From assembly GCA_030697645.1 (NCBI GenBank), contig JAUYPI010000004.1:1141-65140 (forward strand): DNA of 64,000 nt. Reading direction: 5' to 3'. Below the pieces are notes generated by a model. The model ran no database searches and was not told the origin of the DNA. It worked only from the letters and a program-made list of their open reading frames with translations. Position numbers and translations under genes: made by a program. This document shows, piece after piece, positions 33,561 through 54,154 of the stretch (position 1 is its first letter; each line of letters opens with the position of its first letter). The stretch is from a bacterium (lineage in GTDB: Bacteria > Patescibacteriota > Minisyncoccia > Phycocordibacterales > VMGT01).

Positions 33561-33739
33561 TAGACCTCTTCGGAAATTCCTTTCTGCTGCAATTTCTGAT
33601 TTCTGGCTGCGACTTCGGAAAGTATCGCAAAATGATTCTCGTCGTACAACAAGTACGCCGTCGAATCATTTCGCTCACTTTCCTCGTCTCGCTCAAAAAT
33701 CAGAAATTTCGCCACGAAAGGAATTTCCGAAGAGGTCTA
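33561..33739. repeat. ~180-bp TIR-bounded palindromic element, copy 3 (variant TIR tagacctcttcggaaattcc...ggaatttccgaagaggtcta)
   Basis: TIR stem differs from copies 1/2/6 but stays self-complementary (compensatory). Confidence 0.85.
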
Positions 33740-34533: not shown

Positions 34534-34714
34534 TAGACTTCTTGCATAACCCGTTTCGTGGCGAGATTTTTGATTTTTGAGCGAGACGAGGAAGACAAGC
34601 AAAATGGTTCGACGGCGTTACTCGGTTGTACGGCGAGAACCATTTTGTGAAGTCTGACGAAGTCGCAGCCAAAAATCAAAAATCGCAGCAGGAGCGGGTT
34701 ATGCAAGATGTCTA
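34534..34714. repeat. ~180-bp TIR-bounded palindromic element, copy 4 (inverted orientation)
   Basis: Reverse complement of copies 1/2; its terminal gcaagATGtcta supplies the first in-frame ATG of the secY ORF. Confidence 0.85.
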
Positions 34715-34725
34715 TACGTTCGATC

Positions 34726-35997
34726 ATGCAAACATTCCTCGCAAAACTCAAACTCATCATTAACGACGCGACGCTCCGGCGCCGGATCATCTTCACGCTC
34801 GCGATGCTCGCGTTGTTCCGACTGTTCGCAATCATCCCGATCCCGGGCATTGACTCGATCGCGCTCGAGCGTTTCTTCTCGCAGAATCAGTTTTTTGGCC
34901 TCATCAACATCTTCACCGGCGGCGGTCTCGACAACCTCTCGATCGTGATGCTCGGCGTCGGCCCCTACATCACCGCCTCGATCATCATGCAGCTTCTCAC
35001 CATGATGTCGCCGCGCTTGAAGGCCCTCTACCACGAGGAGGGTGAGGCCGGGAGGCGGCGCTTCAGCCAGTACTCGCGGCTCATCACGGTGCCGCTCGCG
35101 CTCCTCCAGGGCTTCGGCTTCCTCATCCTCCTTGAGCGCCAGGGCGTTGTCACAGCGCTCGGCACGTTCGAGCTCATCTCAAACGTGATCCTGATTGCCG
35201 CGGGCTCGATGCTCCTCATGTGGATCGGAGAGCTTATTACCGAGTTCGGGATCGGAAACGGCGTCTCGCTTATCATCTTTGCCGGTATCATCTCGCGGAT
35301 CCCCGCAGTCGGCTCACAGCTGATCTTCACCTTCGAGCCATCACAGCTGCCGCTCTATGCGGGGTCGCTCGTTGCGGCGCTCGCGATCATCGCAGGCATC
35401 ATCGCGGTGACCGAGGCTGAGCGGCCGGTGCCGATTACCTATGCGAAAAGAGTGCGCGGCGCGAAAATCTACGGGGGTGTTTCGACGTATCTTCCTCTGC
35501 GGCTCAATCAGGCCGGGGTTATCCCGATCATCTTCGCGCTCTCGATCCTCCTCTTCCCGCAGATGATTGCAAACTTCCTCTCGCAGGTGGATCAGCCGCT
35601 CGTACAGACGATCTCGCGGTTTATCGTCGATGCGCTTGCGCAGCCGGTGCTCTACGGGGTGATGTACTTCATTCTCGTCTTTCTCTTTACCTTCTTCTAC
35701 ACCGCGATTACCTTCGAGCCGGAGGCGATCGCACAGAACTTACAGAAAGGCGGCGCGTTCATACCGGGGGTGCGGCCCGGGCCGCCGACTGCAGCGCACC
35801 TCGGCAAGGTCGTAACGCGGATTACTCTCGTCGGCGCGCTTTTTCTCGGCGTCGTTGCGGTGCTCCCTCTTCTGATGCGGGCTATAACGGGCATCGCTTC
35901 TCTTGCGATCGGCGGGACCGCCGTCATCATCGTCGTGCAGGTCGTCCTCGACCTCGCCCGAAAACTCGACGCGCAGATCGCGATGCGGGAGTACTAA
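34726..35997 (+). CDS. secY: preprotein translocase subunit SecY
   Basis: 10-TM SecY sequence (GIDSIALERFF...GGGLDNLSIVMLGVGPYITASIIMQLL...); start at second ATG outside the repeat; isolated from any r-protein cluster. Confidence 0.9.
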   Translation: MQTFLAKLKLIINDATLRRRIIFTLAMLALFRLFAIIPIPGIDSIALERFFSQNQFFGLINIFTGGGLDNLSIVMLGVGPYITASIIMQLLTMMSPRLKALYHEEGEAGRRRFSQYSRLITVPLALLQGFGFLILLERQGVVTALGTFELISNVILIAAGSMLLMWIGELITEFGIGNGVSLIIFAGIISRIPAVGSQLIFTFEPSQLPLYAGSLVAALAIIAGIIAVTEAERPVPITYAKRVRGAKIYGGVSTYLPLRLNQAGVIPIIFALSILLFPQMIANFLSQVDQPLVQTISRFIVDALAQPVLYGVMYFILVFLFTFFYTAITFEPEAIAQNLQKGGAFIPGVRPGPPTAAHLGKVVTRITLVGALFLGVVAVLPLLMRAITGIASLAIGGTAVIIVVQVVLDLARKLDAQIAMREY

Positions 35998-36012
35998 TGC
36001 TCGGTGCTAAAA

Positions 36013-36087
36013 AAGTGGACATCGAAAGTGGACAAAAAGTGGACATCCGATGTCCCACATGACGATGTCCCACATGAGTCCCACATG
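36013..36087. repeat. iteron-like array: 3x AAGTGGACA then 3x (A)TGTCCCACATGA (inverted), followed by hairpin terminator 36093-36116
   Basis: Direct and inverted 9-12-bp repeats immediately downstream of secY; centre includes GGACATCCGATGTCC palindrome. Confidence 0.5.
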
Positions 36088-36142
36088 AAAAACAGCCCAA
36101 CGCGGTGGTTGGGCTGTTGACTTTTGTGGAAGGGAAAGAACA

Positions 36143-36400
36143 TCAGGGGCAGGGTGCGGTTTCGCTCAACTGTGTAAGGAACTCGCGGGCTTGTTGAACA
36201 CGGCTTTGGTTTGTGGATTTACCGACCATTTCTGGAGCGTGTGTTGACTTTCTCGGGTCGTCTACCTCATCCGCGACCTGTAGAAGCAGCGCCACTAAGT
36301 ATACTTCAGGCTCTTCTTTTGCTTTTTGCCTGAATTTCGCTGAGTGGCGGGCATGAACTCTCTCCATCAAATCCTGCAATACCTCTCGAGATATTTCCAT
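36143..36400 (-). CDS. hypothetical small protein (lower-GC island)
   Basis: 85-aa ORF adjacent to 36412-37233 on the same strand. Confidence 0.3.
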   Translation of the reverse strand: MEISREVLQDLMERVHARHSAKFRQKAKEEPEVYLVALLLQVADEVDDPRKSTHAPEMVGKSTNQSRVQQAREFLTQLSETAPCP

Positions 36401-36411
36401 TGCATTTCCCT

Positions 36412-37233
36412 TTATGCGCTCTCCGTAGTTTCTGATCGCGTCTCTTTAACAATGTTGAGGTTCATGTTAAAGAAGTTTGCTGTCCAAATTTCAACCTCTC
36501 TGCTTTTCGTCGCGATCACATTCTCCCAGAATTTCCGTATGAGGAAACAAAAGACGAACATGCCGGTGTCGTCAACCCATTTCTCCACCTCCTTGGTGAT
36601 GAATTCGTAATGATTGTCAACGAACGCTTTTTTGTGCCTCGGCCATGAGCCATGTACTCTCAAAAACCGCTGCAGCTCTCCCCGCCGCCATGGATACACA
36701 TGATCGAGCCGTCCGTGTTCCGCCATGACCCAGCGAATGATCGCCTGCAACACATCATAACATCCAGACGCTTTCGCTTCTGTCTCGCGTGCGCTTTCCA
36801 TGCGGAAGATGAGCTTCAGGATCTGTGTCCGCTCGTCATCTATTCGTTCAAGGATAGGTAGGTGCTTTTTTTCGGGCGTCTCGTTCAAATATACCCCATC
36901 TACTTCGTACATAGACCACCCCTTGAAGTGTGACTCGTACACGTCAATCCGCTGCCTGGCCTCTTCCACCGAAAAAGTCACTCGTCTCGGCGGTCGTGTG
37001 CGTTCATAGTGCCTCGGGTCAAAAAGCTGCGGGTATTCGCGCATCTCCTCCATGATGGCTTCGGTCCTATCCGGATGGCTTATATATGCCTTTACAAGAT
37101 CCTCATCCAACCCTTCCTTCAGCGCAGCATAAATTTCGCTCTGGTATATGACCCGTTTCGGCAAATGCAGCTCTGCCAGAATTGCCCGGCGGCTGCGAGT
37201 GAATACATACGGCGATATGATGACTTCTGCCAT
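36412..37233 (-). CDS. hypothetical protein (lower-GC island cargo)
   Basis: 273-aa ORF with distinctly lower GC and codon usage than the flanks; no motif recognised. Confidence 0.45.
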   Translation of the reverse strand: MAEVIISPYVFTRSRRAILAELHLPKRVIYQSEIYAALKEGLDEDLVKAYISHPDRTEAIMEEMREYPQLFDPRHYERTRPPRRVTFSVEEARQRIDVYESHFKGWSMYEVDGVYLNETPEKKHLPILERIDDERTQILKLIFRMESARETEAKASGCYDVLQAIIRWVMAEHGRLDHVYPWRRGELQRFLRVHGSWPRHKKAFVDNHYEFITKEVEKWVDDTGMFVFCFLIRKFWENVIATKSREVEIWTANFFNMNLNIVKETRSETTESA

Positions 37234-37432
37234 TCGCTACCTCCCCTGATTTTTAACAACGAACATCTTCCTCGGACTCATCCCACGCTGCTTTATATCT
37301 ATGGAAATGTCAAGCTCCGCGGGACTGGCCGATGTGTTGGTCATAAGGATGTCTAACATTATAGCTGGCCGTGTCAGTCATCCGATGTCACACACAGCAG
37401 TTGTGTGTCATCGGACGTCGGACATTGCAGCG

Positions 37433-37640
37433 TTGACAACCACGGCGCGAGCCGTAGACTGAAAACATAAAAAAGTTCTACATCTCTCTCGCCACCCTCT
37501 GTATTTTGTCGGCGGTGTTTGGTATTTGGACAGCGAGCCGCGCGGGTAGCGAAGAGATCAGTGCATGCGTCGGCACCTCTGGCCTCATGCGCTCTCTCGC
37601 GAGCGGCGAGTGCCGTCGCGGAGAAACGGGATTTAAATAG
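37433..37640 (+). pseudogene. duplicated 5' fragment (upstream region + first ~55 codons) of the secreted-protein gene at 40165; start codon mutated (ATG to ATA)
   Basis: ~90% identity to 40133-40330 (ttgacaaccacggcgcga...aaaaagttctacatctctctcgcca...), reading KKFYISLATLCILSAVFGIWT... then premature stop. Confidence 0.6.
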
Positions 37641-37654
37641 CCGAGGAGGTAGCC

Positions 37655-38485
37655 GAGGAGGGTCAGACCCTCCTCGGTTTGCAGAGCCATCGGTTTACAT
37701 ACTATGTGGTAGGATAATGCTAATGCCGCGACAGACGAGACAGTTTGAAGAGGGCGGGATTTACCATGTCCTCAATAGAGGAGTTGAAAAGAGAAAAATA
37801 TTTTCCAAGACGCAAGATTACCACCGCTTTATACTTGGACTTGAATTTTTCAACTCATCCGATACTACCGACCTGTGGCATCTTCTTGCCCGAGGAGGGT
37901 CTGACCCTCCTCGGGCAAGAGTACAGTCGGTGGGCGAGAGGCTTGCGTCGCAGCGCACGAAGCAAAAATGGCATCTCGTCGATCTCCTTGCTTTTGTGCT
38001 TATGCCAAACCACTTTCATCTTATACTGCGCGAGATTCACGAAGGGGGTATTTCTGCGTTTATGAAAAAGCTGGGTGGATACGCCATGTATTTTAATAAA
38101 CAATATCATCGCGTCGGTCCGCTTTTTCAGTCGCGCTATAAGGCGGTACCGATAAAAAGTGACGCACAACTTTCAGTGATTTATACCTACGTGCATACTA
38201 ATCCGGTAGAGATCATTGAGCCGCTGTGGAAGAAGGAGAACAAGGTGTTTCATCTCGACAAAGCGCTCGCGTACCTCAATGAATATCCTTGGACGAGTTA
38301 TCATGACTATGTGGGGAGGCCACAGTTTCCTTTTGTTACCCAGCGTGATTATTTGTCCGATTACTTTGGGAGCGCACAGGCGTGTCAGAGGGAAGTAGAG
38401 GAGTGGGTAGAGCACAAAGCGGCGATGGCTGACTTTGATCGGCGCGAGTTTGAGTAAGGCAGCAGAGGAGGGTCAGACCCTCCTC
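37655..38485 (+). mobile_element. REP-RAYT unit: RAYT gene bracketed by REP hairpins GAGGAGGGTCAGACCCTCCTC
   Basis: REP copies at 37655-37675 (upstream), 37892-37912 (inside the CDS, inverted centre) and 38465-38485 (8 nt after the stop). Confidence 0.7.
37717..38457 (+). CDS. REP-associated tyrosine transposase (RAYT; IS200/IS605-family Y1 HuH transposase-like)
   Basis: IYHVLNRGVEKRKIF (N-terminal strand, cf. YHVVxRTKYR), HuH motif MPNHFHLIL, catalytic Tyr region FQSRYKAV; 11 codons (LLARGGSDPPRA) are encoded by an in-frame REP copy. Confidence 0.75.
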   Translation: MLMPRQTRQFEEGGIYHVLNRGVEKRKIFSKTQDYHRFILGLEFFNSSDTTDLWHLLARGGSDPPRARVQSVGERLASQRTKQKWHLVDLLAFVLMPNHFHLILREIHEGGISAFMKKLGGYAMYFNKQYHRVGPLFQSRYKAVPIKSDAQLSVIYTYVHTNPVEIIEPLWKKENKVFHLDKALAYLNEYPWTSYHDYVGRPQFPFVTQRDYLSDYFGSAQACQREVEEWVEHKAAMADFDRREFE

Positions 38486-38815
38486 GCGCCATATTGTTAG
38501 TGGGTTTGCTGCATAATCACGCCATGCGGAAAAAAATGTTTGTCAGCGTTGCGTGCGGCGATGTTCTTCGGCAGAGTGGTAGTATAAAAAAATGAAAAGG
38601 CCCCATCTTATTTTTCTCGGCGCGCTCGCGATAGTGTTCGCGGCAGCGAATATGTAGACGTTCATTTTTCTCCATTTCCCTTGCGAGTTTGTGTATTCTG
38701 GCGGCAGTGTTTGAAGGTGTCATCGAGATGGGAACAAACTGAAGACGTTGATGAGGTGGATAAGTGAAAAGCCCGCACAGCATCGTGCCGTGCGGGCATG
38801 TAATTCCTTACGGGA

Positions 38816-39496
38816 TCACCTTCGTATGTGTCGCCACAATCTCTCAATGAATGATGGCGAGGGAAGGCGTATCAGCATCGCCTCAGAAGTCGGGATTAAT
38901 TCGTATTCATCGTGTATTCGATCCTGTCGTTCTCGGGAGGAGCGGATGACGCGCCAGTCGTATTCGTATCTCCGTTGTTCGCCTACAAGATATCGGCTCA
39001 GTCGGGTAAAAGCAGCCATTTGAGCGATACCAAGCAGTATCACGGGTATCATCGCATCTCGAATCTCGACCGACGATTTTTGAAACGAATACATGAGAAA
39101 TCCGACTACAAAAAGAGTTAAAACGGCATAGGTGAGTTGCGCCGCAAAAGCAAGTACGCCTCCTCGCGCACCTCGTCGGTTGAAGCGGTGCCATTTAAGA
39201 CGCCTGTCGGGATCGCGGGATTCCCAAAACACCGCGATGTACCCACCGATACGAAGTGCTTGGCTTAGACTGTTGAGGTAAACCAAGCTGGACACTGCGA
39301 GGACCGCAAAGAGAAACAGAGCGAACACAGCGTGACTGACTTGAGGAGATTCTGATCCGCCTTGATACCACGCAAGCGCTACAAAAATGAACACGCTTGT
39401 TACGTACAGTATATATCTCCCGTGCGCAAGGAGTTCCCGTAATTCGTCACGCAAGGAAATAAACTCTTCAAACCTGTTCGAATCAACTTGTCGCAT
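38816..39496 (-). CDS. hypothetical membrane protein
   Basis: 226 aa, 4 TM helices. Confidence 0.45.
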   Translation of the reverse strand: MRQVDSNRFEEFISLRDELRELLAHGRYILYVTSVFIFVALAWYQGGSESPQVSHAVFALFLFAVLAVSSLVYLNSLSQALRIGGYIAVFWESRDPDRRLKWHRFNRRGARGGVLAFAAQLTYAVLTLFVVGFLMYSFQKSSVEIRDAMIPVILLGIAQMAAFTRLSRYLVGEQRRYEYDWRVIRSSRERQDRIHDEYELIPTSEAMLIRLPSPSFIERLWRHIRR

Positions 39497-39563
39497 ACGC
39501 CCTTCTCCATGGTATGATGAGAAATGAATTGAGGGTGGTTTTTTTAACCACCCTCCAATTTCT

Positions 39564-39779
39564 CTACTCGTAATCTCCGCGCATCACTCGGTGCACTAGC
39601 CGAAGTAAGCATCCGTGTATGGCACCCAAGAGCCAAACCATCCACACGCCAGCTGTATCGTTGGGAACATAGATGAGGTAATACCCCACCATACCGAGGG
39701 ACACAAGGATCAATGCAGGAATCCCAAACAGGAGTACTTTGTCCATAATCTGATGGCGCACTTCGGGAGATAAACGCAC
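39564..39779 (-). CDS. hypothetical small membrane protein
   Basis: 71 aa, 2 TM helices. Confidence 0.35.
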   Translation of the reverse strand: MRLSPEVRHQIMDKVLLFGIPALILVSLGMVGYYLIYVPNDTAGVWMVWLLGAIHGCLLRLVHRVMRGDYE

Positions 39780-39947
39780 ATTTTTCTCCTTCTCATTCTA
39801 AATGCGTTCGACAACGTAAATGTACTACCAAGCCCGGCTTTACAGTGCATGTTTATAGGCAAAAAGTCAAGTTTCCCGTTTTTTATGCGGGCTTGAACGA
39901 TGTTCGAACTACCGGGAAAGCGGGGGAGGGGGGGGTCTTATAGAGAT

Positions 39948-40126
39948 TAGACTTCTTCGGAAACCCCTTTCGTGGCGAAATTTTTGATTTTTGAGCGAGA
40001 CGAGGAAAGCGAGCAAAGTGACTCGACGGCGTACTTGTTGTACGATGAGAGTCATTTTGCGAAGCTTGACAAAGTCGCAGCCAAAAATCAAAAATTGCAG
40101 CAGAAGGGAGTTTCCGAAGAAGTCTA
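39948..40126. repeat. ~180-bp TIR-bounded palindromic element, copy 5 (inverted orientation, variant TIR)
   Basis: tagacttcttcggaaacccc...ggagtttccgaagaagtcta; left boundary of the surface-protein island. Confidence 0.85.
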
Positions 40127-40164
40127 TTGGTTGACAACCACGGCGCGACCCGTAGGATGAAATC

Positions 40165-40833
40165 ATGAAAAAGTTCTACATCTCTCTCGCCACGCTCTGT
40201 ATTTTGTCTGCGGTGTTTGGCATTTGGACACTCAGCCGCGCAGGGGGCGAAGAGATCAGTGCATGCGTCGGCCCCTCCGGCCTCATGCGCTGGCTCGCGA
40301 GCGGCGAGTGCCGCCGCGGCGAGACCGAGCTCAATTGGAACGTGCAGGGGCCGCAAGGTTTACAAGGCGAGCGTGGACCGGCAGGGTCACAACTCCATTT
40401 GTTTGACGCAAGCGGGCAAGATCTCGGGGTACTTCTCGATATAGATAACGACATTCGCGAAAATGGGACTGGTTTTCGTACTGATTTTCCGTCTTTAGAC
40501 GCCGTGTTCGATTTTCAGTCATCTGTAAACCCGCCTTCATTTATTGTCTCTTCGAACTTATTGCCTCGCGGTTTGGTTTTTAGTGAATCAGATTGCTCAG
40601 GGATGCCATTTGTCGTTGAGCGACCGCTCCATGACTACACGGTAACCGAGTTTGACGGCTCGTATTATATGACCGGAGGCGTAGACAGCGATCCGGGCAC
40701 CGCAATGTCATACTTTGACAACACTGGCCGCGTTTGCATGAACATTCTACCGGAAGCGACCTCGACCTTTCCGCTTGTAAAAATAGTCCTTCCTTTTACT
40801 CTGCCCCTTGCGTACCCTCCTATGATTGATTAA
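40165..40833 (+). CDS. secreted protein with short collagen-like (G-X-Y) segment
   Basis: Signal peptide MKKFYISLATLCILSAVFGIW; GPQGLQGERGPAG triple-helix-type repeat. Confidence 0.55.
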   Translation: MKKFYISLATLCILSAVFGIWTLSRAGGEEISACVGPSGLMRWLASGECRRGETELNWNVQGPQGLQGERGPAGSQLHLFDASGQDLGVLLDIDNDIRENGTGFRTDFPSLDAVFDFQSSVNPPSFIVSSNLLPRGLVFSESDCSGMPFVVERPLHDYTVTEFDGSYYMTGGVDSDPGTAMSYFDNTGRVCMNILPEATSTFPLVKIVLPFTLPLAYPPMID

Positions 40834-40892
40834 AAATAGGTAAGGACACCGTCTGAAAAAATTTGTTCACTTGCCCGCGAATGTTAGACATC

Positions 40893-41068
40893 GGATGTCT
40901 AACATTTCACGAAATTCGAAATCCGAAGCACGAAATACGAAACAAATCAGAATGACCAAAATATAAATACTCGAAACACGACGGCCGTATTTTGAACATT
41001 AGGACATTTGGATTTTGATATTGTTTCGGATTTCGATATTCGTGCTTCGGATTTAGGTTTTCTTTATG
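40893..41068. repeat. modular palindromic element (cgaaat arrays around cgaaacacgacggccgtattttg)
   Basis: Same architecture as the 30367-30535 element; abuts the 41066 start. Confidence 0.6.
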
Positions 41069-41953
41069 CTTTCTTTTCTCCGCAGACATTTGATTCTTTC
41101 GCTCGGCGCGCTCGCGCTGTTTGCTTTTATTTTTAGCGAAGCTGTGTTTGCGCTTCCGGTGCGGCTCCTCACCTGGGAGCCGGAGCGGCTTGCGCCGAGC
41201 TCGATTGCGCCGGGGGAGGAGGTGACTTACACAGCAATTTTTACGCCGACGCTTCCGGTGCCGAAAGTGGAGAGTCTCACCGCCTCGCTCACGGGTCCGG
41301 CGGCGGACTTCCTAACCTCGCTCACGGTTGATTTGCCGACGGAGACAGGGAACACGCTTCGCGGCGGGACGAGTGTTCCGGTGCGGCTCGCGGTGCGCGT
41401 TCCTCTCGGCGCTGTCGTTGGGAGCTACCCGGGTACACTCACCCTGCGCTACGGCGAGGATGGTCTGCCGCTCCTTTTTGCGCCCGACCTTGCGGTGGAG
41501 CTCACGGTGTCGACCGTTCCCGTCCCGCCTGACCCGGGTAAAGCAGGGAAGGAGACGATCGCGGGGATTGACGTGAACACAAACGGCGTCCGCGACGATG
41601 TCGAGCGCTTCATCGTCTTCTCCTATAACGACATCACTCCAGAGCACGAGAATACAAGGAACGCGCTGTTCCAATATGCAGGGGCGGCGCAGGAGGGGCT
41701 GATGAACGCCGCAGACAAAGTGCAGGCGAGAGCGGAAGGGGAAGAGTTGGATCAAGCGCAGAATTGTCTTTGGGCAGTACGCGGCACCGAGGAGGGCAAC
41801 ACCGCTAGTTCGATACTGACAGCACAAATGTTCAACACAGTTGCTCGGACACGACAGTGGAGCATGTTTAATCAACAACTGAGCGGTCTCGTTTCTGTGT
41901 TAGAAACGAATGAAGAAATTTTACGAGGCGACTGCTCCTTTGAGATTCAGTAG
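41066..41953 (+). CDS. secreted hypothetical protein
   Basis: Signal peptide; Pro/Thr-rich beta-type N-terminal half. Confidence 0.5.
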   Translation: MLSFLRRHLILSLGALALFAFIFSEAVFALPVRLLTWEPERLAPSSIAPGEEVTYTAIFTPTLPVPKVESLTASLTGPAADFLTSLTVDLPTETGNTLRGGTSVPVRLAVRVPLGAVVGSYPGTLTLRYGEDGLPLLFAPDLAVELTVSTVPVPPDPGKAGKETIAGIDVNTNGVRDDVERFIVFSYNDITPEHENTRNALFQYAGAAQEGLMNAADKVQARAEGEELDQAQNCLWAVRGTEEGNTASSILTAQMFNTVARTRQWSMFNQQLSGLVSVLETNEEILRGDCSFEIQ

Positions 41954-44663: not shown

Positions 44664-44777
44664 TGTTGACGCAAGGGTGAAGTTTAAAGTCCTCGACTCG
44701 ACGACTCTCGTCGGCTCGTAGGCGAAGGCGCGGAGCTTGTGACTCCCGCCTTCCACAGCCCTTTTTGAAAAAGGGCT

Positions 44778-45428
44778 GTGGAAGGCGAATGCAAAATGGA
44801 AAAATCAAAAATTAAAATGCCAATGCAAAATACAAAATTGTCTCTGACGATTCTCGGTATTTTTGGATTGGCGTTCGTGTCAGATGTTGCCGATGCGAAA
44901 AGTGTATCCGTTCAAAACATAATCTCGGTTTTTTCTTCAAGCGGCGGGAATGTGGCACGGGAGGGCGAGATCGTGGAGGGAAAAGCGGAGAGCGAGGTCT
45001 TTGTCGAGACACGGGTCAACGGCGCGGTTGTCGAGAGCTACGATTCGAGAAAAGTCGTTGAGGAGAGTGCGGTGGTAGCAGACCTACACACGCAGCAGTT
45101 TAACGATTCGTTCGAGAGTGAGGATGGCTCGGTAGAGACGCATGTGTCGCTAGAAAATAGTGTTGGATATCCGAAAAGTGCGGGGCATCGGATGTCCCGC
45201 AGTACCGTGGAACAGCCGATGTCCACTGTTTCGAGCTCGACGAATGCCACCGCGACGGCAGAAGCGCAGATTGCCGCAACGAGAACCGCGGCAGCCACAT
45301 CGTCCGCAGCAACCACCTCGCTCTTTGCCGCCGGAGCGAGTAATGAGGAATCAGCGGCGCAGAGGTCATTATTCAAAAGAGCGTTCAAGTTTATAGCGTA
45401 TGTCTTTTCTTTCAAGTGGATTTTTTAA
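44778..45428 (+). CDS. secreted hypothetical protein
   Basis: Signal peptide (LSLTILGIFGLAFVSDVADA), Ser/Thr/Ala-rich C-terminus; start ambiguous (44778/44817). Confidence 0.4.
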   Translation: MEGECKMEKSKIKMPMQNTKLSLTILGIFGLAFVSDVADAKSVSVQNIISVFSSSGGNVAREGEIVEGKAESEVFVETRVNGAVVESYDSRKVVEESAVVADLHTQQFNDSFESEDGSVETHVSLENSVGYPKSAGHRMSRSTVEQPMSTVSSSTNATATAEAQIAATRTAAATSSAATTSLFAAGASNEESAAQRSLFKRAFKFIAYVFSFKWIF

Positions 45429-54010: not shown

Positions 54011-54154
54011 TTTTTTGGAGCTTGGGGTTTTCTCACGGCGGGGGACATCCGATGTCCCGCAGTTGATGTTCCGCATTCGATTCCTGACAGTTTTTTGCCC
54101 CGGAAGCGGTAAACTTCCGGGGCGTTAGGGGCATGTGCAAGTGGTGGAGAAACG

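Follow-up and report, generated by a model that had tools for sequence, protein, structure and literature searches.

The TnpA-Y1 proteins have been split into subclasses by Quentin et al. 2018 (PMC6006769), and the closest described relatives of the system reported here fall among them. Subclass 2.1 (PMC6006769) is equivalent to the terminal inverted repeat-associated tyrosine transposases (TIRYTs) and their TIRtrons (Di Nocera et al. 2013, PMC3733652) and to the Group 1 RAYTs, the tyrosine transposases associated with repetitive extragenic palindromes, or REPs (Bertels et al. 2017, PMC5581495). Its signature consists of a length of approximately 238 amino acids, the motifs NH[YF]H, FQ or W[EQ] and Y[IV]HLNP, and an SS motif in the tail (Table 1 of PMC6006769). 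The proteins have been reported to carry a tail resembling a helix-turn-helix (HTH), with similarity to Bac_DnaA_C, HTH_23, or HTH_28 (PMC6006769), and the repeats flanking TIRYT genes share the motif GGGGWSAS (PMC3733652); according to Quentin et al., REP-like sequences have not been reported for subclass 2.1 (PMC6006769). Subclass 2.4 (Group 4) is found in Cyanobacteria and Bacteroidetes and is defined by NH[IFV]H, WQ, YIxNNP, a length of approximately 194 amino acids, and REPs that are GT[AG]G-footed or "double-foot" (PMC6006769). In-frame REPs inside RAYT genes have already been reported for this subclass, with the insertion lying between the HuH motif and the Y motif (PMC6006769). The REPs of E. 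coli, which are linked to a RAYT of their own, number in the hundreds and are imperfect and bulged, with a GTAG foot (PMC8266576). Here, we describe a RAYT/TIRYT-type gene and its palindromes in a 64-kb stretch of a genome from the Patescibacteria, or candidate phyla radiation (CPR) (contig JAUYPI010000004.1; the whole stretch is referred to as the window).

The locus is a single-copy, intact Y1 HUH gene of RAYT/TIRYT type with the layout that is usual for a large Patescibacteria clade. It forms a compact unit of approximately 0.8 kb that holds three copies of one perfect DNA palindrome: one upstream of the gene, one in frame inside it, and one downstream. The gene occupies 37723–38457 on the plus strand and encodes 244 amino acids plus a stop codon. 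The start in agreement with the homologs is the ATG at 37723, not 37717, and it also agrees with an identical database protein of 244 amino acids (P0001; L- and P-numbers are labels for fetched loci and homologous proteins, respectively). It is the only Y1 gene in the window, and the sequences of 35523–39997 and 37543–39681 are present with 100% identity in two separate assemblies. The open reading frame (ORF) matches Pfam PF01797 (Y1_Tnp) at 31.9 bits against a gathering threshold of 23. The alignment is limited to profile positions 36–120 because the N-terminal part is split by a clade-specific expansion that bears the palindrome. The HuH motif NHFH (38008–38019, plus strand) and the putative catalytic tyrosine codon within YVHTNP (38188–38190, plus strand) are invariant among 30 aligned homologs. 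More than 1,000 homologs were found, nearly all in Patescibacteria metagenome-assembled genomes (MAGs).

The AlphaFold model of the 244-residue protein had a mean predicted local distance difference test score (pLDDT) of 84.5 and a predicted template modeling score (pTM) of 0.84. Its closest fold in the PDB was 4ER8, the E. coli RAYT-REP complex (Foldseek E value 1.7e-4, target-normalized TM score 0.60), followed by 2A6O, 2XO6, and 2VJV, which represent the IS608 and ISDra2 transposases. Searching the PDB sequences with profiles and with single sequences gave no match even at E = 10; it was fold comparison alone that led to 4ER8. An earlier note on this DNA had called the gene a RAYT transposase with Y1 HuH motifs, and the Y1_Tnp match, the motifs, and the best structural match bear out an intact Y1 HUH enzyme of this kind.

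The sequence GAGGAGGGTC[A/T]GACCCTCCTC occurs as exactly three exact copies in the 64 kb, at 37655–37675, 37892–37912, and 38465–38485, with centre bases A, T, and A, respectively. No further copy was found in the other 63 kb of the window with up to 3 mismatches allowed, for a chance expectation of 0. Copy 1 extends to CCGAGGAGGGTC-A-GACCCTCCTCGG (37653–37677, stem 12), and its centre lies 58 nt 5′ of the ATG. Copy 2 is the longest (37884–37920, stem 18, centre T at 37902) and is read in frame as L55–R66 (LLARGGSDPPRAR); its central base is the third of codon 60, and it lies 26 codons N-terminal of the HuH motif. Copy 3 (38465–38485, stem 10) has its centre A at 38475, 18 nt 3′ of the stop codon, and is not followed by a T-run. 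Folded as single-stranded DNA (ssDNA), copies 1, 2, and 3 gave −13.9, −22.2, and −14.4 kcal/mol, with z scores of −4.6, −8.6, and −6.0 relative to shuffled controls. Directly 5′ of copy 1 there is a partial half-site repeat, CCGAGGAGG (37641–37649, plus strand, read from the sequence), and similar half-site repeats adjoin the upstream copies at other loci. GTAG (37649–37652) directly precedes copy 1 and does not precede copies 2 and 3.

The peptide encoded by copy 2 forms a low-confidence loop in the AlphaFold model, with pLDDT below 50 at model residues 61–64, and the model places the in-frame copy in a disordered surface loop. This loop belongs to the clade-specific expansion, a segment of approximately 38 amino acids between the first helix and the HuH strand. 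The earlier note had described a gene bracketed by cognate palindromes with a third copy in frame inside it, and this arrangement was confirmed at the positions given above. Its figure of exactly 11 added codons did not hold. The perfect palindrome spans 12 codons plus one base, the core common to the three copies spans approximately 7 codons, and hairpin-free homologs are approximately 6–7 residues shorter here.

To place the internal copy in context, 80 genomic loci were fetched, and 83 homologous genes, the majority of them in CPR MAGs, were scanned as DNA. In 39 of the 83, matching perfect odd palindromes were present both just upstream and just downstream, and 38 of these 39 genes also carried an internal copy, for which approximately 0.2 would be expected by chance (computed at ≤2 mismatches in 14 positions). 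Counting every gene with an internal copy that matches at least one flank, the total rises to 50. The median upstream centre lay 39 nt 5′ of the ATG and the median downstream centre 15 nt 3′ of the stop codon. Median stems were 11 upstream, 10 internal, and 11 downstream; the internal stems are as long as the flanking ones, and the coding copy is therefore not decaying. Internal centres fell at two places only: codons 55–74 (site A, 44 cases), the class to which the window's copy belongs, and codons 155–161 (site B, 9 cases).

Site B is a second permissive in-frame position, used by a subset of the family and located 4–6 residues past the NP of the catalytic Y motif. It is occupied in L021 (5818), L027 (5592), L029 (4505), L033, L037, L056, L065, L070, and L079 (10452). 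Both internal sites are occupied in L020, L021, and L065.

The palindromes are genome specific yet identical within a locus (for example GGAGGGAC, GCGGGGTC, GTGGGGTC, ACGAGGTC, GGAGGTT, GGAAGTC, TTGACATC, and CCAAGGGC), and each homolog's internal palindrome matches its own flanks, which upholds the earlier suggestion that the flanking element has been copied into the gene at the DNA level, as a "translated REP". The same note had taken the insertion to be peculiar to this gene. Homologs at 35%–62% identity have an equivalent element in the same loop as the window protein; homologs do share residues at this position, so that, taken literally, the refuting condition set by the note has come true, and the idea of a recent, private insertion falls. 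Most likely, the internal copy has long belonged to the unit and is maintained in it. What is new here is that an in-frame cognate palindrome is near-obligatory in a large CPR clade, at different protein sites and with clear concerted evolution. No description of the three-copy layout in CPR was found in the literature searched, coverage of which was incomplete, so an earlier account is possible.

At the position of copy 2, aligned homologs of 51%–63% identity encode GGSDPP, GGTVPP, AGTVPA, or VGSDPT, and the outer residues of this peptide covary as G..P, A..A, and V..T, as expected from compensatory changes in the DNA stem GGAGGGTCnGACCCTCC. Other peptides encoded among the homologs include EVEP and EARP, and the reading frame relative to the centre varies between subfamilies. 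Pairing was then quantified for 44 centre-anchored site-A hairpins (440 cells) and compared with shuffles and with slid partners. Paired cells made up 90.9% compared with 54% in shuffles, double-sided changes numbered 159 compared with 47, and the covariation score was 0.90 compared with 0.22 in shuffles and 0.13–0.23 for slid partners. One-sided changes of the G-U type were seen in only 2 of the 440 cells. To judge from these sequence comparisons, the constraint acts on DNA and not on the peptide or the mRNA, because pairing is Watson-Crick with almost no G-U, which an RNA structure would tolerate.

The centre base was either X or its complement in 39 of 39 loci; therefore, the copies can point either way. 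The idea of a simple left-end/right-end polarity was considered and dropped, the centre base having no consistent orientation pattern across upstream, internal, and downstream copies. In L016, the internal copy and an upstream extragenic copy share approximately 48 nt, including at least 20 nt of non-palindromic flank, which means that DNA has been copied between sites. Across the family, half-site divergence tracks protein divergence (Spearman 0.47; 0 of 2,000 permutations as high).

Palindrome doublets with a conserved spacer of approximately 30–50 nt, resembling REPINs, are repeated on both sides of the gene at L016:7190–7547, L017:9870–10800, and L079:9840–9920, and the in-frame copy of L016 takes in part of a doublet spacer.

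Away from the genes the palindrome is sparse. Flanking DNA of the homologs held 15 extra copies in 524 kb (2.9 per 100 kb), and 32 of 39 loci had none. An exact-pattern metagenome scan returned 11 contigs, several of them from high-GC organisms with the match inside long ORFs and possibly due to chance, so the scan gives only a hint of dispersal. One metagenome contig (L091) carries a homologous gene with four palindrome copies, one of them internal, and isolated intergenic copies are present on two contigs from the same sample.

On the Rhodospirillum rubrum plasmid NC_007641.1, a gene annotated as "transposase" is flanked by GGGGTC-A/T-GACCCC with the centre base flipped (L094:1448–1466 and 2208–2226). 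This relative is 30% identical to the window protein and lacks both the internal copy and the approximately 38-residue segment. The palindrome is common to the window and the plasmid, and the half-site is therefore conserved across phyla. Relatives from Legionella and Acetoanaerobium have ordinary inverted repeats.

The position of the upstream copy relative to expression signals was also compared. TATAAT-like hexamers peak 6 nt 5′ of the ATG, in 13 of 80 genes compared with a background of approximately 1–4, and a Shine-Dalgarno-like core is present in only 3 of 80. The proximity of the hexamer to the ATG and the scarcity of Shine-Dalgarno-like cores suggest that many family members probably have leaderless transcripts. 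In most loci, the centre of the upstream palindrome lies 7–32 nt 5′ of the hexamer, over the −35/spacer region; the upstream copy would therefore lie outside the mRNA, in operator position. In the 45 nt upstream of the start codons of the 80 loci, the −10-like hexamer often reads TGnTATAAT.

At the window locus, the candidate signals are AGGA (Shine-Dalgarno-like, 8 nt 5′ of the ATG) overlapping GATAAT (−10-like, 4 nt 5′ of the ATG) at 37711–37717 on the plus strand; the evidence for them is weak, and no promoter was called here. The sole promoter-like match in 37300–38700 is a sigma-70-like TTGACA-16-TAGACT (37433–37460, plus strand, 10 of 12 positions), which, judged by its sequence, may drive transcription toward the Y1 gene. 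It is carried by a degenerate duplicate of another gene start, described below.

On balance, we consider it probable that the palindromes are the enzyme's own DNA sites, kept alike by DNA-level copying, and that the three-copy unit is old and maintained. The enzyme would recognize the palindromes as ssDNA hairpins or extruded cruciforms, a proposal made because of the precedents of E. coli RAYT with REP and IS608 TnpA with its hairpin; by this analogy, a link between enzyme and palindrome is most likely, and GAGGAGGGTCAGACCCTCCTC is the putative substrate core. Enzyme-mediated strand transfer or short-patch gene conversion would keep the copies alike. In most homologs, the upstream copy overlaps the core promoter, and by analogy it may serve as an operator through which the protein would repress its own gene, with the internal and downstream copies as partner sites.

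The near-constant internal copy in units with flanking palindromes points to action of the enzyme on, or its control through, its own gene. The palindromes offer short, defined candidate substrates of 21–37 nt for binding and cleavage tests. They extend the REPtron/TIRtron idea to Patescibacteria and link the TIRYT motif GGGGWSAS to a full palindrome. They also provide a clean case in which a constraint on DNA structure dictates protein sequence: in the residue pairs G..P, A..A, and V..T, the two members covary as a result of base pairing between their codons. In annotation, motifs of the "GGSDPP" type are footprints of a DNA palindrome and not functional protein motifs.

A bolder version, which we regard as improbable, would make the unit a self-acting DNA device. 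The Y1 enzyme would nick and rejoin cruciform copies in and around its own gene, homogenizing them as a homing REP, and would perhaps reversibly excise or exchange the segments between them or nick the intragenic copy as if it were an origin, in the manner of Rep genes with an origin of their own inside them. If true, this would be a gene that edits or regulates itself at the DNA level, and it would give a RAYT-type enzyme its first defined cis-substrate and biological role.

Several points weigh against the palindromes being maintained sites of the enzyme. The enzyme-palindrome link within the clade rests on analogy and linkage. Approximately 20–30 of the 83 homologs have no detectable palindromes and retain the catalytic motifs, so the three-copy set is not indispensable. 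(The same genes lend no support to the idea that hairpins decay once the enzyme dies, given that palindrome-free genes still have catalytic motifs.) The pairing statistics are somewhat inflated because the loci were picked by protein similarity and the hairpins by likeness to palindromic flanks; the double-sided changes and the scarcity of G-U are independent of hairpin selection. Protein and half-site would also diverge together under simple co-inheritance. If the enzyme cuts at an identical site within its own gene, that site would be harmful, and rearranged variants were absent: no gene with an inverted or missing N-terminal part was found in the fetched CPR loci, which, these being consensus assemblies, is weak evidence against switching. 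The window itself is atypical, with an upstream centre farther from the ATG than in most homologs. A sigma-70 promoter overlapping palindrome 1 was not found in the window, and the promoter-overlap argument rests on the homologs; the operator role is therefore weakest at the locus studied here.

The strongest competing explanation is that a selfish REP acting in cis has inserted repeatedly and without function. The enzyme would paste mobile REPs near its own gene, only two loops would be permissive, and the copies would have no function. We regard this as possible, though clearly behind maintained sites. It would account for the use of two internal sites, both of them in some genes (L020, L021, and L065), for the variation in reading frame between subfamilies, and for close homologs in which the copy is absent or decayed (P0049, P0069, P0088, L003, and L012). 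Isolated intergenic copies (L081, L087, L079, and L058) and the flanking repeat sequence brought along by the internal copy of L016 point the same way, and the in-frame REPs of subclass 2.4 have been so interpreted (PMC6006769). Set against this, occupancy of 38 of 39 genes compared with 2.9 copies per 100 kb of flanking DNA would require an extreme cis preference. The closest subfamily keeps its frame while all three copies turn over, which is better explained by conversion of an old site, and the internal stems equal the flanking stems in length.

A doubtful alternative, less likely than selfish insertion, is that the palindromes serve only as duplex operators: double-stranded sites for a dimer, either of the enzyme's own C-terminal domain or of a host regulator, that never form hairpins and act by looping in the manner of lac O1/O2/O3. 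Perfect Watson-Crick symmetry would suit such sites, as would the upstream copy that overlaps the promoter in many loci, the iteron-like half-site repeats that adjoin upstream copies, and the HTH-like tail reported for subclass 2.1 (PMC6006769). However, Pfam and NCBIfam identified no HTH family in the window protein, and stems reach 18–29 bp in a site-specific manner, far past a protein footprint. The flip/flop orientation and the dispersed copies suggest mobility, and the catalytic motifs are conserved.

The three remaining explanations fare much worse. It is very unlikely that the palindromes are RNA-level elements, with mRNA hairpins controlling stability, processing, or translation. REPs are known to stabilize mRNA 3′ ends (PMC3733652), and the downstream copy lies just past the stop codon, but G-U pairs are nearly absent, the upstream copy is 5′ of the likely transcription start of a leaderless mRNA in many homologs, copies occur in both orientations, and Rfam gave no match. 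Slighter still are the chances of a recent, private in-frame REP insertion into this gene, as the earlier note read it: the internal core is identical to the flanking copies and encodes residues modeled as a disordered loop, but a same-loop element is present in 44 homologs down to approximately 35% identity, each matching its own flanks. That GGSDPP is a conserved protein motif with a palindromic coding sequence by coincidence is hardly credible and is contradicted by the nucleotide data: GG[ST][DV]PP does recur among the closest homologs, but its residues covary exactly as base pairing predicts, the peptides of distant homologs are unrelated and read in other frames, these nucleotides are also present outside the gene, and the segment is modeled as disordered.

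The DNA around the unit has repeats of its own. Immediately upstream lies a degenerate duplicate (37432–37627, plus strand) of the promoter region and first 54 codons of the gene at 40165–40833, which encodes NCBI MDP3734982.1; the intact counterpart is at 40130–40325 on the plus strand. The two are 89% identical over 196 nt, and the duplicate takes in 35 nt upstream of the start, has ATA in place of ATG, matches residues 1–54 at 91% by tblastn, and is also present in the independent assembly L096. The earlier description of an approximately 90% identical gene start with a mutated ATG was accurate. From the end of the duplicate, it is 13 nt to the half-site repeat ahead of palindrome 1 and 13–25 nt to the first palindrome. 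The note's suggestion that duplication or recombination assembled the region is no more than a possibility, as the sequence points to no mechanism. The lower GC content that the note had remarked on in 36140–38500 was also recovered (0.503, where the window averages 0.561; among the lowest 4% for windows of its size), and 36140–40130 is the lowest-GC 4-kb stretch of the window (0.495 compared with 0.561; also delimited as 36100–41100). Neighboring ORFs of 85, 273, 226, 71, and 222 amino acids matched no family in Pfam, NCBIfam, or PHROGs, and an Rfam search of the surroundings (35900–40600) gave no relevant family. The stretch 36140–40130, which follows a secY-like ORF (34708–35997, identified by eye only), looks like an accessory island, with palindromic repeats at its borders and between its parts.

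A second palindrome family, GGACATC[C/G]GATGTCC, is found at 36010–36090, 37379–37394, 40881–40905, 45183–45224, and 54043–54057 (5 matches in the window at ≤2 mismatches compared with 0.13 expected). Tandem half-site repeats lie on either side of the copy behind the secY-like ORF, there is a half-site copy at 37379, and the copies at 36041 and 37379 bracket two minus-strand ORFs (36143–37233). Its core is that of the palindromes around the Giovannonibacteria homologs L046, L047, and L049. The window has no second Y1 gene, and the cognate gene is therefore expected elsewhere in the genome. Directly 5′ of the intact copy of the duplicated gene start there is an inverted repeat of approximately 180 nt (39948–40126; 24-nt outer arms at 92% and 15-nt inner arms at 100%) that may be a large hairpin or an element like a miniature inverted-repeat transposable element (MITE). 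One of its arms recurs at 33561–33587, and the repeat contains the end of contig L096. Between two plus-strand ORFs there is also a perfect palindrome, CGCCTTCCACAGCCCTTTTT-G-AAAAAGGGCTGTGGAAGGCG (44747–44787, stem 20 bp), that is unrelated to either repeat family.

Of the described systems, the protein signature and half-site match the TIRYT/subclass 2.1 RAYT type, as far as sequence can tell. When compared by eye with Table 1 of PMC6006769, the window protein has 244 amino acids, NHFH, FQSRY, YVHTNP (T for L), and WTSY (WSSY in homologs), and like TIRYTs it is a low-copy gene with repeats of GGGGWSAS type at short, fixed distances. The window half-site AGGGTCAG matches GGGGWSAS at 7 of 8 positions; the corresponding half-sites are GGGGTCAG in L005, L010, and L004 and GGGGACAG in L002 and L011, and in more distant CPR subfamilies the half-site has diverged to GAGGTT, GAAGTC, or GACATC. 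The flanks of the relative on the R. rubrum plasmid carry AAAAGGGGTCAGACCCCTT and AAACGGGGTCTGACCCCTT, palindromes of the class seen at the window locus; the window protein has the expansion before the HuH strand, and the plasmid protein lacks it. Where TIRYTs have a single arm of a terminal inverted repeat, each flank here consists of a complete, perfect palindrome, and a third copy lies in frame within the gene. Pfam and NCBIfam gave no match, and thus no HTH family, in the C-terminal 80 residues of the window protein, and the model shows a helical tail.

As in subclass 2.4, cognate palindromes flank the gene and sit in frame inside it, in a region that is variable and peripheral. The internal copies here precede HuH (site A) or closely follow the Y motif (site B), in contrast to the position in subclass 2.4, and the window protein (FQ, YVHTNP, 244 amino acids) departs from the signature of that subclass. 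With the E. coli RAYT (TnpA-REP, YafM; REPtron), its best structural match, the window protein shares the HuH and Tyr motifs and cognate hairpins that bracket the gene, but sequence identity is only approximately 14%, and the palindromes here are perfect, footless, and almost confined to the gene. The label "RAYT/REP" in the earlier note thus fits the kind of enzyme but not the strict sense of the term. With the NCBIfam RAYT equivalog NF047646, for which the cut-off is 80 bits, the protein scored 43.7; a GT[AG]G foot is not consistently present (some homologs have GTAG or GTGG within the stem), and no high-copy dispersal was seen in the window or in the flanking DNA of the homologs. The CPR homologs L005 and L021 scored 36 and 33 bits against NF047646, and the proteobacterial relatives scored 75–79, just under the cut-off.

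The IS200/IS605 elements (IS608, ISDra2, and IS200) are likewise compact, with subterminal hairpins flanking a Y1 gene and a related fold (2A6O, 2XO6, and 2VJV). They differ in having Y-x3-Q where the window protein has Y-x3-NP and in having no internal copy of the end hairpin; the window protein did not match the IS200 equivalog NF033573, and no identical multi-copy units were seen here. Paralogs within one MAG are only approximately 35%–55% identical to the query and have their own palindromes.

Two further systems also tolerate a nucleic-acid element within coding sequence. Rickettsia palindromic elements are inserted in frame into protein genes, but they are 100–150 bp long, occur in many unrelated genes, and are not known to be linked to a cognate enzyme gene. 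The rolling-circle Rep genes, such as phiX174 gene A and pT181 repC, contain their own origin hairpin and belong to single-origin replicons. They come close to the window locus in that the gene for an HUH enzyme carries the enzyme's own nicking site, a feature that is putative here, and the window locus differs from them in being a three-copy chromosomal unit.

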